The translations under genes were made by a program, and so were the position numbers. From Halomicronema hongdechloris C2206 (GTDB lineage: Bacteria; Cyanobacteriota; Cyanobacteriia; Phormidesmidales; Phormidesmidaceae): 32,000 nt of DNA. Below, in pieces: positions 25,854 through 32,000 of the stretch (positions are counted from its first letter, which is position 1; each line of letters begins with the position of its first letter). The stretch is taken from NCBI RefSeq assembly GCF_002075285.3, contig NZ_CP021983.2:4620001-4652000 (forward strand). Direction: 5' to 3'. The notes beneath the pieces are model-generated. The model made no database searches. It worked only from the letters and a program-made list of their open reading frames with translations, and was not told where the DNA came from.

Positions 25854-28073
25854 ATGAAACGGCGTCAGTTACTGCAGTCAGCAGGGGGCTTATTGGCAGC
25901 CCTAGGGCTGCACGAAGCCAACCTATTGCGGCAGGCCCAGGACTACCGGCAGGCCCTGGCCCAACCGGCGGGCCGTAAACTCGCATTGCTAGTGGGTATC
26001 AATGCCTATGGCAGCCAACCCCTGCAGGGCTGTCTCACCGATGTCGCCCTACAACGGGCATTGCTGATCCATCGCTTTGGCTTTCATCCAGATGATGTCC
26101 TCACCCTGAGCGACAGGGCGGCTACCCGAGACGGCATTCTAGCTGCCTTTGAGACCCACTTGATTCAGAAGGCTAAACCAGAGGATGTGGTCTTGTTTCA
26201 CTTCTCGGGCCATGGCTCCCGCCTGCAGGACCCGACTCCTATCGACGGCCGTTCCTTCAACAGTGCCTTAGTGCCCATTGACAGCTCCTTGGGGGGATCT
26301 GGTCAACCGCCTGCTACCGTCTCCGACATCATGGGCAAGACCTTGTTCTTACTGATGAGTGCCCTCCAGACCGAGCAGGTGACGGTGGTGCTCGACAGTT
26401 GTTACTCTGGCGGCGGCAAACGGGGCACCACGGTGGTGCGGTCGGCCGTCCGGGGAGGGCAACGGCAATTGCCCCGTCCCAGCCAGGCTGAGTTGGCCTA
26501 TCAAGACTCCTGGCGGGAGCGGCTGGGCTGGTCTCGAGCGGAGTTGCAGCAACGACGGCAGGCCGGTGTGGCTAAGGGAGTGGTGATCACGGCAGCGGGC
26601 CCCGGTCAAGTGGCCCTCGATGCCGACTTCGGTGAAGTTAGGGCCGGAGCCTTCACCTATCTTCTGACCCAATATTTGTGGCAACAGGGCGATCAAGAGC
26701 CCCTAGAGCAGGCCCTAGCCACCGTCGGTCGCAGCACCCAGCAGTATGCCCAGGATGTCTCTACGCGGTTGCAGACTCCTGAATTTGAAGCCAATCTGCC
26801 GGCTGGACAGTCGGTGCCCATGTATTTCTTGCCGCCTACGGCCCCCGCGGCTGAAGCCGTGATCACGGGGCGGTCGGACCCCGAGGTCACTATCTGGTTT
26901 GGGGGCGTCGATCCGCGTAGTCTGGTGGCCTTTGGCGAGAATACGGTGCTGGATGTACTGGATAGTCAGGGCAATACCCAAGGGGAAGTCCTGGTGCGAT
27001 CGCGTCAGGGATTGGAGGGCACCGGTCGCTGGCTAGGTTCCGGTCGCAGTGGCCCCACGGGAATTTTCTTGCAGGAGGTGATTCGCGGCATCCCCCAGAA
27101 TCTGGAGTTGCGCATCGGCCTGGATCCATCTCTCGATGGCATGGCTGCGGTTCAGGAAGTCTTGGCGGCCTTGCCTAGGATTGAACCGCGACCGGTGTCA
27201 CTGGGCGGGGTGGACTATATCTTAGCTCCCCTAACGGCTGATATCGCTGCCCCAGCCTCCCAACCTGGTGCCAGGACAGGAGCCTTAGGGCTGTTCTCGC
27301 CAGGGCTGGATCCCCTGCCGGGCTCCTTCGGTGTGCCTGGAGAGTCTCCGGCTAATGCCGTGCGACGACTCCGGACTAAGTTGCAACAGTTACTGGCCGT
27401 CCGCCTCTTGAAGGTGATGCTCAACCCCAGTTCCTCCCGTTTGCAGGTCACGGCGACCATGCATCCGGTTGCAGGAGGGTTAGATGTGGCTGCCAATCGC
27501 CTGACGGTGCGGGGGGGGCGTAGCGCTGGAAATTCGCCGACGGAGGTGGCCGCGACTACCGCGGCTGGTCGCGTGCAGCTACCGGTGGATACTGAAATTC
27601 AGTTCGAAGTCACCAACCAAGAGCCGCGGCATCTCTTCATCAGCCTGGTGGTGATTGCCCCTGACGGCGAGTTGATTCTGATTTATCCCAATAACTGGGC
27701 GGCCCCGGAGGATGCTGCTCGAATTCCCGCCGCCACGACCCTGCAGATTCCGCAGCTTGGCCGCGATCGTTTTAGCTTAGTACTGCGCCCGCCGACGGGG
27801 GTGGTGGAAACCCTGGTGATTGCCAGTGCGGTGCCCTTGCGTGAGGCCCTGCGGGTGATGGGGCAATTGGGAACAGAACGCGGCCTACGGGGGGGCGAGC
27901 CCCTAGTGGGGGACAGCGGTATGGTGACTCTGGTAGACAGCCTTCTGAGTGACTTTAACCAGTCTGCCACTCGGGGGTATCGCGGCTTAGGCATAGAACC
28001 CCTCCCTGATATCCAGGGGATTGATAGCCGCGATGTGGCCGCCCTGTCTATTGTCTTTGAGGTGATTGCCTGA
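25854..28073 (+). CDS. Tat-signal orthocaspase (peptidase C14 family) with a C-terminal DUF4384-like domain
   Basis: GAGGG lies 5 nt upstream of the ATG at 25854. The Tat-type signal is MKRRQLLQSAGGLLAALGLHEA. The caspase His is in VVLFHFSGHGS and the Cys in VTVVLDSCYSGGG. The DUF4384-like segment is IQFEVTNQEPRHLFISLVVIAPDGELILIYPNNW. The track ORF start (25728, TTG) adds 42 implausible residues. Confidence 0.85.
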   Translation: MKRRQLLQSAGGLLAALGLHEANLLRQAQDYRQALAQPAGRKLALLVGINAYGSQPLQGCLTDVALQRALLIHRFGFHPDDVLTLSDRAATRDGILAAFETHLIQKAKPEDVVLFHFSGHGSRLQDPTPIDGRSFNSALVPIDSSLGGSGQPPATVSDIMGKTLFLLMSALQTEQVTVVLDSCYSGGGKRGTTVVRSAVRGGQRQLPRPSQAELAYQDSWRERLGWSRAELQQRRQAGVAKGVVITAAGPGQVALDADFGEVRAGAFTYLLTQYLWQQGDQEPLEQALATVGRSTQQYAQDVSTRLQTPEFEANLPAGQSVPMYFLPPTAPAAEAVITGRSDPEVTIWFGGVDPRSLVAFGENTVLDVLDSQGNTQGEVLVRSRQGLEGTGRWLGSGRSGPTGIFLQEVIRGIPQNLELRIGLDPSLDGMAAVQEVLAALPRIEPRPVSLGGVDYILAPLTADIAAPASQPGARTGALGLFSPGLDPLPGSFGVPGESPANAVRRLRTKLQQLLAVRLLKVMLNPSSSRLQVTATMHPVAGGLDVAANRLTVRGGRSAGNSPTEVAATTAAGRVQLPVDTEIQFEVTNQEPRHLFISLVVIAPDGELILIYPNNWAAPEDAARIPAATTLQIPQLGRDRFSLVLRPPTGVVETLVIASAVPLREALRVMGQLGTERGLRGGEPLVGDSGMVTLVDSLLSDFNQSATRGYRGLGIEPLPDIQGIDSRDVAALSIVFEVIA

Positions 28074-28082
28074 GGCCTGAGG

Positions 28083-30442: not shown

Positions 30443-30446
30443 GGGA

Positions 30447-32000
30447 TTATCGTCGCATCAAAAACGGCAATCGGTAGAACCAGAGGGTAGCCAGCGGTAG
30501 GGCAATGGGCAGAAGCACCAGCCCAGCAACATAGACTTGCAGGCTAATGATGGCATAGAGTAGGGAGCCACTGACTAGGAAGATGCACTGCCGCCGCCGG
30601 TGGAGGCTAGTCTGGTCGATTACTTTGCTCAGTAATGCCGCCATTAGTACTAACCACAGGTCGGGCAGGGGCACGACCAAATGGCGGTGGCGAAAGTGGT
30701 GAAACAAATAGCCATGGACTTCGCCTCCCAGGAGAACGGTGCTGTTATTGGCAGGAGCCTGGCGCTGACGCCAGTAGGCCATGGCTGCAGGCAGGGGGAA
30801 ATTGTCTTCATTGAGTTCGCTGACACCAGCTTCGCCGTATCCCCCTGGCATGATCATCACCACTGCTTGGGGATAGTCCTGCCGCAGCTGCGGGGGTGAG
30901 CTTTCTAGGAGCTGCCAAGCCGGTATTTGGCTGTAGAGCCGCTGCGGTGGCAGGGAGTAGTCGACGATGGGATGCAACCAGGTTTGCCCCAGACGATAGG
31001 CACTGGTGGTCACCGAGGCAGGCTGCATGCGGGGAGAGGTTAAGTGGGCTGGTACCGCTTGGTGTCCTTGGGAGAGGTCGACGGATTGGTGGCCTGAGCT
31101 CAGGACGTCAGCCAGGGCCATGAGATAGGCCAGGGGGAGGGGCCAGTCGGGACTATAACGGCTGAGAAGTAGGGGCACTAAGCGCCCCTGGCCAAATAAC
31201 TTGATGTCCCCTTGCCAGCTCCAGTCGGGGTTGCCTAGGGCCGGTAGAGGGGTTAGCCACTGCCCAGTTTGGTCGAGGTAAGTGGCTAGAATAAACCAGA
31301 TATCGTCTTGAGCCGCAGTCTCTAGGGTCTGGGCCAGGATATTGTCGTCACTGACTAAGGGGCGATCTAGAAGATAGTCAATGCTGATGACCGCTGGTTG
31401 CAATTGGGCAGTTTTGTCGACGACCCGCGCCAGATAGCGCCGATCCATGGGCCGGGGGTTGCTAATGTCGGCCCGGATCAGAGAATCATTGTCGATGGTG
31501 ACTAGCAGCAGCTCTGGCGATGCAGCCGGCAGCTGGCCGGTGCGATCGCGGTAGATGGCTTGGCTCCAGAGTCGCTGATCTAGCAAGCCCCGTTGTAGAG
31601 GGGGCAGTAGACTCAGGGTTACCATCACCCCGATCACGGCGACTTCGTAGCGGGTTGGCAGCCAGGCCCGTAGTTGCTGGCGCCAGCCCTTGGGGGCAAT
31701 GCGGTAGAGGGGGGCATCGGGGTGGCGAAACAGGGACGGGACTAAGTGAGCCGAGGGATAGGTGAGGGCATGCTCTAGTTTGAGGGCCTGACTGGCCTGG
31801 ATCAGGGCGGTGTGGACGTCGTCGTGGGCGGCTAGCCGCTGCAGGAAGCGGCGCAGGAATACATGGGCCACTTGGTTATGGACCGGTTCTCGAAAGATGG
31901 CGACCTGGCTCAGGCCTAGGTCGATCAGGGATTCGGCTAGATTGAGGCCGCTGCAGGAGTTGAAGAGGGCAAAGCGCAGGCCCCGTTGCTGGGCGATGGC
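30447..32000 (-). CDS. CHAT (caspase-fold) protease fused to a CHASE2 extracytoplasmic sensor domain and C-terminal TM helices; 5' end beyond the window
   Basis: The frame is open to base 32000, and the track start (GTG 31871) is internal. The upstream residues AIAQQRGLRFALFNSCSGLNLAESLIDLGLSQVAIFREPVHNQVAHVFLRRFLQRL...ALIQASQAL resemble the CHAT C-terminal half, including a candidate catalytic Cys (NSC). Next come a TM segment (VAVIGVMVTLSLL), a ~330-aa CHASE2-like region (LLLVTIDNDSL...VISIDYLLD...), and three C-terminal TM helices. Confidence 0.8.
   Translation of the reverse strand, partial: AIAQQRGLRFALFNSCSGLNLAESLIDLGLSQVAIFREPVHNQVAHVFLRRFLQRLAAHDDVHTALIQASQALKLEHALTYPSAHLVPSLFRHPDAPLYRIAPKGWRQQLRAWLPTRYEVAVIGVMVTLSLLPPLQRGLLDQRLWSQAIYRDRTGQLPAASPELLLVTIDNDSLIRADISNPRPMDRRYLARVVDKTAQLQPAVISIDYLLDRPLVSDDNILAQTLETAAQDDIWFILATYLDQTGQWLTPLPALGNPDWSWQGDIKLFGQGRLVPLLLSRYSPDWPLPLAYLMALADVLSSGHQSVDLSQGHQAVPAHLTSPRMQPASVTTSAYRLGQTWLHPIVDYSLPPQRLYSQIPAWQLLESSPPQLRQDYPQAVVMIMPGGYGEAGVSELNEDNFPLPAAMAYWRQRQAPANNSTVLLGGEVHGYLFHHFRHRHLVVPLPDLWLVLMAALLSKVIDQTSLHRRRQCIFLVSGSLLYAIISLQVYVAGLVLLPIALPLATLWFYRLPFLMRR

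Follow-up and report, generated by a model that had tools for sequence, protein, structure and literature searches.

A CHAT-CHASE2 locus of Halomicronema hongdechloris, a possibly damaged member of a conserved cyanobacterial operon with recurrent caspase-fold neighbours

The window considered here, 32,000 nt of DNA from the non-heterocystous cyanobacterium Halomicronema hongdechloris C2206 ("Nodosilineales"), holds towards its end four neighbouring genes: one for a membrane protein that joins a CHAT protease domain to a CHASE2 sensor domain, one for a putatively secreted protein resembling DUF928, one for a stand-alone TPR protein and one for a putatively exported orthocaspase. A preliminary description, made from the letters of the window, had combined these four genes into a single envelope-spanning sensing and proteolysis module. 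To place that proposal on a comparative footing we established the gene content of the window from an open reading frame (ORF) listing, three-frame translation and a Pfam scan, and compared it with related loci. The locus that emerges is neither a newly found four-part machine nor an ordinary one. Rather, it is a member, possibly damaged, of a system that is known computationally and experimentally untouched, and it adjoins members of a second conserved pair of caspase-fold genes.

The CHAT-CHASE2 gene (XM38_044170; 30447..32000, minus strand) runs off the end of the window, which contains the C-terminal 517 of its 810 amino acids (aa). The ORF in the window is a 100% match to the full-length protein (P0001), and the N-terminal 293 aa, His265 included, lie beyond the window end. 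Following the minus strand, the window first holds the codon for Cys309 (31955-31953), then a first transmembrane (TM) helix, TM1 (about 31652-31590), the CHASE2 domain (about 31628-30645; 2.7e-13), three C-terminal TM helices (about 30662-30453) and the TAA stop (30449-30447). Both residues of the CHAT His-Cys dyad, H265 (in FAGHSNE) and C309 (in FNSCSG), are invariant in 25 homologues; the dyad, for which the preliminary description had proposed to look upstream, is intact in P0001, its His lying outside the window. The full-length protein scores 26.3 bits against the Pfam model for CHAT (PF12770; cut-off 24) and the window fragment alone 20.1 bits, below cut-off, whereas CHASE2 (PF05226; cut-off 26.3) is recognised both in the fragment (50.5 bits) and in the full protein (49 bits).

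An AlphaFold model of P0001 (predicted local distance difference test, pLDDT, 79.5) has an N-terminal alpha+beta module (residues about 21-180), followed by a caspase-like alpha/beta domain; after a first TM helix at 410-447 comes CHASE2, and then three further TM helices at 740-756, 761-787 and 790-809. Hydropathy backs the C-terminal helices, while TM1 stays under the 1.6 threshold. The CHAT-TM-CHASE2-3xTM architecture that had been read from the window is therefore confirmed by Pfam, by hydropathy as far as the C-terminal helices are concerned, and by the model. Compared by Foldseek with known structures, the model finds its best matches in Csx29, separase, SAVED-CHAT and caspase-9 (E 2e-9 to 4e-4), with Csx29 (7zoq_A, 8eex_B) at the top; DdvA (8rot_A) is matched at E = 1e-7. 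The N-terminal residues about 21-180 are conserved and modelled with confidence as alpha+beta. By description they would be EACC2-like; neither Pfam nor NCBIfam includes an EACC2 model.

To determine which genes habitually accompany CHAT-CHASE2, we scanned one genome per species, obtained 561 related loci and analysed 80 of them by six-frame ORFs, phmmer and hidden Markov model (HMM) searches and neighbour clustering. The loci detected, like the 80 analysed, are almost all cyanobacterial, chiefly from filamentous forms. Note that the denominators 74 and 61 used below count the loci in which a neighbour was testable. The comparison reveals a conserved co-directional unit of four genes: a sigma-like gene, DUF1822, CHAT-CHASE2 and the DUF928-like gene. 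In 55/74 loci the DUF928-like gene starts at or overlaps the CHAT-CHASE2 stop, and in 58/74 it lies within 1.2 kb, so that the coupling of these two genes, postulated from the window alone, is borne out across loci. DUF1822 (Pfam, 3.2e-41) is found upstream on the same strand in 34/61 loci, and a sigma-like gene of ~470 aa precedes DUF1822 in 32/61. The four-gene order is intact in the closest relatives of the C2206 locus (L081, L161 and L162). Since the DUF928-like, DUF1822 and sigma-like genes are each missing in some loci, even the core of the system is modular. The sigma-like gene and DUF1822, the best conserved upstream partners, lie beyond the window and had been overlooked in the preliminary description.

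The ~470-aa protein matches TIGR02937 (sigma70-ECF, where ECF stands for extracytoplasmic function) at 3.8e-5 and 23.4 bits, under the cut-off of 42.9, with the match spanning sigma regions 2 to 4. It has no Pfam match, and a profile search of PDB returned no sigma factor. Calling it sigma-like draws in addition on the ECF sigma neighbours described by Kaur et al. For C2206 itself, the context beyond position 32000 is drawn from locus tags and relatives. DUF1822 corresponds to XM38_044190 (P0122), which lies outside the window, two locus tags from XM38_044170. This protein is 76% identical to its orthologue up to residue 259 and then diverges, ending after 308 rather than 438 aa. By its sequence, the gene appears to be truncated by a frameshift, with XM38_044180 presumably representing the rest of it, and it would be the second frameshifted gene of the operon after the DUF928-like gene. 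As an aside on the survey, one of the loci (L064; CAZZZY010000128.1) comes from a bin labelled 'uncultured Acetobacteraceae bacterium'. It carries CHAT-CHASE2 and DUF928-like genes of the cyanobacterial type and, downstream of them, TPR/TPR-CHAT and S8-peptidase-like ORFs, and is probably a mis-binned cyanobacterial contig.

The DUF928-like gene of C2206 (29799..30442, minus strand) is disrupted in the deposited sequence and spread over three frames. Its ATG (30442-30440) lies 4 nt past the TAA of the CHAT-CHASE2 gene. The ORF that opens there is only 32 codons long, MFRFITSRFPQLRLSRYLLLGSLAWGLPNHYS followed by a stop, the frame that encodes the signal peptide running to a TAG at 30346-30344. 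A middle segment, TTIASAQRPPLPPGEGA (30357-30307), is read in a second frame, and a third frame covers the body, which extends from GGSRGDLC (30302) as far as the stop codon (29799-29801). Judged against a relative that is 82% identical and has the gene intact, the frame shifts twice, in the intervals 30365/30357 and 30307/30302, and DNA alignment with this intact 216-aa gene (L081) places two extra bases at ~30362 and ~30307, both in C/G runs. The deposited annotation comprises the 170-aa body (XM38_044160) without a signal peptide. We considered programmed frameshifting and rejected it: two +1 insertions fail to restore the frame, and both are absent from the relative.

The DUF928-like body is under strong purifying selection. 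Its ratio of non-synonymous to synonymous divergence (dN/dS) is 0.07 (dS 0.71), compared with 0.13 for CHAT-CHASE2, and any inactivation would therefore be very recent. The frameshifts in the DUF928-like and DUF1822 genes of C2206 reflect either homopolymer errors of 454/PacBio sequencing or very recent decay. Errors of this kind are plausible because the assembly was built from 454, early PacBio RS and 36-bp Solexa reads. Elsewhere in the window long ORFs are intact (1295, 1279, 810, 739 and 681 aa). The supplements of the C2206 proteome paper, which we searched for the locus tags, contained none of them.

Against the Pfam model for DUF928 (PF06051; cut-off 26) the truncated ORF of the window reaches 18.9 bits, and correcting its frame gives 18.0 bits. 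Of the secreted DUF928 gene that had been described at this position, then, the start 4 nt behind the CHAT-CHASE2 stop holds, while the continuous reading frame and the straightforward family assignment do not. Among 57 DUF928-like orthologues, 35 match DUF928 at E <= 0.01 (best 1.6e-7); the same Pfam scan of the L001 orthologue found no match. In a second CHAT-CHASE2 subfamily, represented by L094, the corresponding position holds a canonical DUF928 protein (167 bits). Because of these weak family matches and the canonical DUF928 in L094, we regard the window family, as judged from sequence, as a divergent DUF928 relative, and the CHASE2 sensor and its DUF928-type partner appear to co-vary at the family level. 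The orthologues have hydrophobic N-termini, predicted to be signal peptides, followed by the motif PP..GGSRG..C..P....W.DRP.F.W.G. A profile search of their alignment against PDB sequences returned weak Ig/FN3-type or irrelevant matches only, a protein search with the body matched just its own entry, and a single-sequence AlphaFold model (pLDDT 52) suggests a beta-sandwich followed by helices. In Lyngbya/Limnoraphis-type loci (L005-L008, L012, L013), the DUF928-like proteins contain internal PPE(S/W)xDGGSR repeats, with two tandem paralogues in L005 (12438-14158); in these loci the place directly upstream of CHAT-CHASE2 is taken not by DUF1822 but by a TPR protein of ~360 aa.

The remaining two genes of the block form a convergent pair. 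The orthocaspase gene (25854..28073, plus strand) encodes 739 aa, made up of a Peptidase_C14 domain (about 25974-26795; 82.1 bits, cut-off 21.4; 6.4e-23), a middle region and a DUF4384 domain (about 27579-27836; 52.6 bits, cut-off 27; 5.1e-14). The protein starts MKRRQLLQSAGGLLAALGL, its N-terminus MKRRQLL being of the twin-arginine translocation (Tat) type, and its His-Cys (HC) dyad consists of the His in SGHG (H120) and the Cys in DSCYSGG (C183). Residues K2, R3, R4, H120 and C183 are invariant across five orthologues (alignment A3), and an RRxFL N-terminus occurs in 34/35 full-length metagenomic orthologues. The orthocaspase thus carries a conserved twin-arginine motif, consistent with putative Tat export to the periplasm or into the lumen of the thylakoids. 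Pfam and the invariant residues agree with the earlier description of a C14 orthocaspase with a Tat motif, an intact dyad and a DUF4384 tail, its export being predicted.

The TPR gene (28083..29231, minus strand) encodes 382 aa with TPR_12-type repeats (7.5e-38) and without a CHAT domain. Its convergent orientation and the 9 nt between its stop and that of the orthocaspase can be read directly from the sequence, just as the preliminary description had given them. Note that the first 118 aa of the protein are themselves TPR-like and so cannot separate orthologues from repeat-level similarity. A 567-nt spacer lies between the DUF928-like gene and the TPR gene. Within it, 37 nt beyond the DUF928-like stop, is a perfect 24-nt palindrome, GGCCCAGGGCAATTGCCCTGGGCC (29739..29762; inverted repeat I8, 100% complementary), which, going by its sequence, might form a hairpin or mark the boundary of an operon. 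Relatives of the palindrome resembling GGGCAATTGCCC occur within the orthocaspase gene at 26457-26474 and 26967-26984. A scan of 25400-30600 for promoters and terminators found no excess over shuffled expectation, and the operon boundaries therefore stay inferred.

How regularly the TPR protein and the orthocaspase accompany the operon can be asked from both sides. Starting from the 80 CHAT-CHASE2 loci, a TPR-family ORF directly abuts the unit in 38, and TPR ORFs account for 13% of the ORFs overall; the TPR gene beside CHAT-CHASE2, as noted for the window, is accordingly a recurrent direct neighbour. Another CHAT protein is found within 10 kb in 34/80 loci, and a member of the orthocaspase family in 7/80 (L011, L045, L065, L070, L072, L076 and L077, from many genera and several orders). 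A second caspase-fold protease near CHAT-CHASE2 is thus a common feature if other CHAT proteins are counted, but this particular orthocaspase, which the preliminary description had cast in that role, is present in a small minority. All seven of these orthocaspase-bearing loci also contain a TPR-CHAT gene. With few orthocaspase copies per 6-7 Mb genome, we estimate that chance would place one in about 0.5-1.5 of 80 loci. Co-occurrence of the orthocaspase with CHAT-CHASE2 is far above this expectation, which is an estimate rather than a measured background.

Starting from the orthocaspase, we scanned metagenomes with an alignment of five orthologues and obtained 39 strong loci, which form 36 groups at 85% identity. 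A CHAT-domain protein lies <=1.2 kb from the orthocaspase in 21/36 testable loci, and each of the nine partners that we scanned (9/9) has N-terminal TPR repeats and a C-terminal CHAT domain (CHAT E 1e-62 to 1e-77): members of this orthocaspase family are usually partnered by a TPR-CHAT protein. CHAT-CHASE2 and/or DUF928-like genes are present in 9/37 orthocaspase loci, often co-directional and with short gaps. The fullest arrangements, in L108 and L119, have on one strand the sigma-like gene, DUF1822, CHAT-CHASE2, the DUF928-like gene, the orthocaspase and TPR-CHAT. L114 has the same string as far as the orthocaspase, inside which the contig ends, and L090 and L099 have partial versions. Of the seven loci found from the CHAT-CHASE2 side, L011 reads CHAT-CHASE2, DUF928-like, a 102-aa ORF, orthocaspase and TPR-CHAT. 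In the orthocaspase set again, in L094 (3666-12259) a single strand carries CHAT-CHASE2 (790 aa; CHASE2 1e-63), canonical DUF928, TPR-CHAT (919 aa) and a Tat-type orthocaspase.

The nearest relatives of the C2206 locus have fewer of these neighbours. L161/L162 (82% identity) have the sigma-like gene (485 aa), DUF1822, CHAT-CHASE2 and the DUF928-like gene (216 aa). Next come a transposase fragment and iron-uptake genes, and neither a TPR nor an orthocaspase gene is near the pair. In L001 and L002 (52% identity) the operon has an orthologue of the TPR protein (E about 1e-83) downstream of it at a distance of 2.4-4.3 kb, behind opposite-strand sugar-kinase and permease genes and beside an aconitase-family gene; no orthocaspase was found in either locus. 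The preliminary description had made its proposal depend on all four genes being conserved together in related genomes, and they are not. TPR protein and orthocaspase are instead frequent but optional neighbours of the operon. Nonetheless, because the orthocaspase/TPR(-CHAT) pair and other TPR-CHAT genes recurrently adjoin the operon, a functional link between them is likely, and either a protease network or a shared regulon would fit.

Nostocales offer a further variation on this theme. Long co-directional multi-CHAT clusters in L010 (3754-21471), and also in L004 and L058, contain the sigma-like gene, DUF1822, TPR-CHAT, CHAT-CHASE2, DUF928-like, a TPR gene (~173 aa), a CHAT gene (~440-530 aa) and TPR-CHAT. 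In L010 the CHAT protein has 531 aa and is followed by a 166-aa ORF, TPR-CHAT and an S8 peptidase. By their gene order, these clusters suggest several caspase-fold proteases acting together.

Upstream of the orthocaspase, 197 nt ahead of its ATG, the window contains a gene resembling the small RNA (sRNA) NsiR1 (Rfam RF02399; 25598-25657, plus strand), which matches the model over its full length (1-60) and, at 64 bits, exceeds the threshold of 39. Over its 5' 18 nt it equals the consensus, a U8 tail accompanies its terminator hairpin, and TCCGGA at 25564-25569, ~30 nt upstream of its 5' end, resembles the DIF1 motif of heterocyst-specific promoters. NsiR1 has been described as specific to heterocyst formers and, in Nostoc, lies upstream of the CHAT protease gene hetF, which it represses. 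Its apparent occurrence in a non-heterocystous Nodosilineales genome is unexpected, and the parallel with hetF is inexact in that the gene downstream here encodes a C14 orthocaspase and not a CHAT protein. The NsiR1 5' motif is absent from the 162 other loci fetched (about 2.1 Mb), which means that the adjacency of NsiR1 and orthocaspase is not conserved. We also looked at possible NsiR1 targets. Duplex energies with translation-start regions rank the DUF928-like and orthocaspase genes 1st and 2nd of 18, by a margin of <1.5 kcal/mol, and we rejected this ranking as evidence.

Further from the block, the window contains Tc-toxin remnants at 5227-6502 (minus strand), 6529-7944 (plus strand) and 7951-11790 (minus strand). 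They include a TcB-like protein of 1279 aa, in which SpvB, TcdB_toxin_midN and TcdB_toxin_midC are recognised, and a TcA C-terminal TcB-binding domain that two overlapping ORFs share between them; a DDE transposase separates these remnants. A 1295-aa protein encoded at 20719-24606 (minus strand) combines Sortilin/BNR (Ycf48-like) beta-propeller repeats with a C-terminal PMT_2-type membrane glycosyltransferase-like domain.

What might this system do? The reading that we favour, and to which we assign a probability of roughly 0.55, is that of a conserved operon whose sensor-gated CHAT protease frees a sigma-like factor, with TPR and orthocaspase genes as accessory neighbours. Imagine that periplasmic CHASE2 perceives an extracytoplasmic cue jointly with the DUF928-like protein that is co-expressed with it. 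This would switch on the cytoplasmic CHAT protease, which would cleave either itself or DUF1822, and this cleavage would free or activate the sigma-like factor and thereby change transcription. TPR, TPR-CHAT and Tat-type orthocaspase proteins would be optional add-ons to this scheme, as scaffold, substrate or second protease, or would simply share its regulation. The mechanism is drawn by analogy with DdvA/DdvS and with Csx29-Csx30-RpoE of Craspase, and on that analogy it appears likely. Its observed basis consists of the architecture and topology of the CHAT-CHASE2 protein, the intact dyad, the overlap with a DUF928-type gene, the DUF1822 and sigma-like genes upstream, and the structural kinship of the CHAT domain to CHAT proteases whose targets are sigma-bound.

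A number of considerations weigh against it. The sigma assignment leans on a sub-threshold match (23.4 bits versus 42.9) alongside a null PDB profile search, and the sigma-like gene is known from relatives of H. hongdechloris. There is no DUF928-like gene in 16/74 loci, and about 45% are without the upstream DUF1822 and sigma-like genes. The enrichment of orthocaspases near CHAT-CHASE2 rests on an estimated rather than a measured background. That DUF1822 is a CHAT substrate or an anti-sigma factor is purely conjectural, and real frameshifts could mean that C2206 has a non-functional system. We know of no experiment on any of its components.

Several other scenarios might explain the same observations. 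One, compatible at the family level with the sensor-gated protease, is that the locus is decaying and non-functional in C2206, DUF928-like and DUF1822 being true pseudogenes there. The DUF928-like gene has two frameshifts inside a stretch of 60 nt, XM38_044190 matches its DUF1822 orthologue only through residue 259, and the intact long ORFs elsewhere in the window argue against a generally high indel error. However, the DUF928-like body is more tightly constrained than CHAT-CHASE2 (0.07 versus 0.13), and the extra bases sit in C/G runs, precisely where 454 and early PacBio sequencing are prone to homopolymer errors; we regard true decay as possible rather than probable. In either case, with two genes frameshifted in the deposited sequence, the window copy makes a poor experimental exemplar. 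A simpler alternative is that orthocaspase and TPR genes are plain neighbours, unrelated to the CHAT-CHASE2/DUF928-like pair, many TPR, CHAT and caspase genes gathering in variable islands. This would accord with the absence of synteny in the nearest relative, where a transposase fragment marks the breakpoint (L161), with the transposase and Tc-toxin remnants in the window, with the 567-nt spacer and its palindrome between the DUF928-like and TPR genes, and with an orthocaspase on the opposite strand. If proximity were all there was to it, though, we would not expect TPR genes, at 13% of ORFs, to abut the operon in 38/80 loci, orthocaspases to turn up in 7/80 against the estimated 0.5-1.5, or 9/37 orthocaspase loci to carry CHAT-CHASE2 or DUF928-like genes, often co-directionally. 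We consider unrelatedness unlikely.

At the other extreme stands the obligate four-part envelope machine of the preliminary description, in which CHASE2 and DUF928 sense, the TPR protein scaffolds and one caspase-fold enzyme works on each side of the membrane. All four families do occur together and co-directionally in distant lineages (L011, L108, L114, L119, L090, L099 and L094). Yet an obligate part should not be missing as often as the orthocaspase is (within 10 kb in 7/80 loci), the closest relative has neither TPR nor orthocaspase beside the pair, and L001 and L002 keep the TPR orthologue without the orthocaspase. Moreover, the convergent orientation and CHAT-less TPR protein of the window differ from the recurrent arrangement, and the sigma-like gene and DUF1822 are better conserved as partners. 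This makes an obligate machine the least probable of the readings that we weighed. Hardly more probable is a trans-envelope relay, in which the exported orthocaspase would act on, or be reported by, the DUF928-like protein, CHASE2 would read the result and a TPR-organised CHAT protease would cleave DUF1822 and free the sigma-like factor; if true, it would amount to a bacterial trans-membrane proteolytic cascade ending in transcription or cell fate. Finally, when the envelope is damaged or a phage attacks, activated CHAT and/or orthocaspase might cleave cellular targets and so bring about death or arrest of the cell. Kaur et al. class such caspase systems with the apoptosis- and immunity-like systems of multicellular bacteria, Csx30 cleavage by Craspase leads to growth arrest, and several paralogues per genome, with variable gene content around the core, would be in keeping with a role in conflict. 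Against this, PADLOC has no match for the CHAT-CHASE2, DUF928-like, DUF1822 or sigma-like proteins (its generic caspase and TPR models match the orthocaspase and the TPR neighbour, nothing more specific), the core contains no conserved toxin-like effector domain, and a conserved sigma-like partner points to a transcriptional output. A suicide effector is, in our view, improbable, about as much so as unrelated neighbours.

With the sensor-gated protease as the preferred reading, it is instructive to ask how the system compares with known ones. Classical CHASE2 receptors share its TM-CHASE2-3xTM topology. Zhulin and colleagues reportedly described CHASE2, in 2003, in fusions to kinases, cyclases or GGDEF domains; in the present protein, by contrast, the output domain is placed at the N-terminal and not the C-terminal side, and it is a protease instead of a nucleotide cyclase or a kinase. 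For CHASE2, as for DUF928, DUF1822 and the cyanobacterial orthocaspases, we know of no established molecular role. HetF, required for heterocyst differentiation and cell division in Nostocales, is likewise a cyanobacterial CHAT protease. It differs, however, in that it lacks CHASE2 and is not accompanied by DUF928, DUF1822 or sigma genes, and Halomicronema forms no heterocysts. Among cyanobacterial orthocaspases, MaOC1 is said to be one that has been studied as an enzyme. In the searched passages of two surveys (PMC8283722, PMC6426788), DUF4384 figures as an accessory domain in 23/473 cyanobacterial orthocaspases and Tat-like N-termini are reported for YS pseudo-orthocaspases; the window protein shares the C14 p20 domain and HC dyad of the surveyed enzymes and differs from what these passages report in bearing a Tat-like signal on a true HC enzyme. 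The same passages make no mention of a conserved adjacent TPR-CHAT gene.

DdvA/DdvS and Csx29-Csx30-RpoE provide experimental precedents for control of a sigma factor by a CHAT protein. DdvA resembles P0001 (Foldseek E = 1e-7) in being a membrane-spanning CHAT-fold protein coupled genetically to an ECF-type sigma factor, DdvS, and in the signal-induced caspase-like proteolysis proposed to precede sigma release. In DdvA, however, the TPR-CHAT portion is periplasmic, the His-Cys site is incomplete and an anti-sigma domain is fused at the cytoplasmic N-terminus, whereas here the CHAT domain is cytoplasmic with an intact dyad, CHASE2 is periplasmic and sigma binding presumably resides on a separate protein, DUF1822. 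Craspase comprises the type III-E effector Cas7-11, the TPR-CHAT protease Csx29, its substrate Csx30, Csx31 and RpoE. The likeness lies in an activated CHAT protease that cleaves a sigma-bound protein, Csx29 being the top structural match of P0001. Some Csx30 C-terminal domains are DUF4384, the domain also found on the orthocaspase tail. Craspase differs in its trigger, which is RNA recognised through a CRISPR effector and not the periplasmic sensor proposed here, and in not being embedded in a membrane; the present locus has no cas genes.

The closest precedent is computational. Kaur et al. (2021, eLife; PMC8195603) described systems in which a constant EACC2 plus caspase module is joined to variable C-termini, including CHASE2 with TM helices; their usual neighbours are an ECF sigma factor gene and DUF1822, and stimulus-induced protease activation followed by sigma-mediated transcription was proposed. 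The present system agrees with this description in CHAT, CHASE2-TM and the DUF1822 neighbour, while its N-terminal alpha+beta module and its sigma-like neighbour resemble EACC2 and the ECF sigma gene; the core of the module, of which the preliminary description had found no account, had thus already been predicted. A WD40 survey also mentions in passing a cluster of CHASE2 and DUF928 in Nostoc punctiforme. Unlike in the searchable text of Kaur et al. (PMC8195603), where neither is mentioned, we find a DUF928-like partner as the most constant neighbour (55/74 loci), and a Tat-type C14-DUF4384 orthocaspase juxtaposed with TPR-CHAT. Relative to the searchable literature, then, two associations appear to be new: the near-obligate, putatively secreted DUF928-type partner of CHAT-CHASE2 proteins, and the conserved pair of Tat-orthocaspase and TPR-CHAT that docks beside the operon. 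Through the comparison, what was a loose list of genes becomes a defined, widespread operon with a testable hypothesis; these data, if both associations are confirmed, would offer a first functional handle on the caspase-like proteases of multicellular cyanobacteria.

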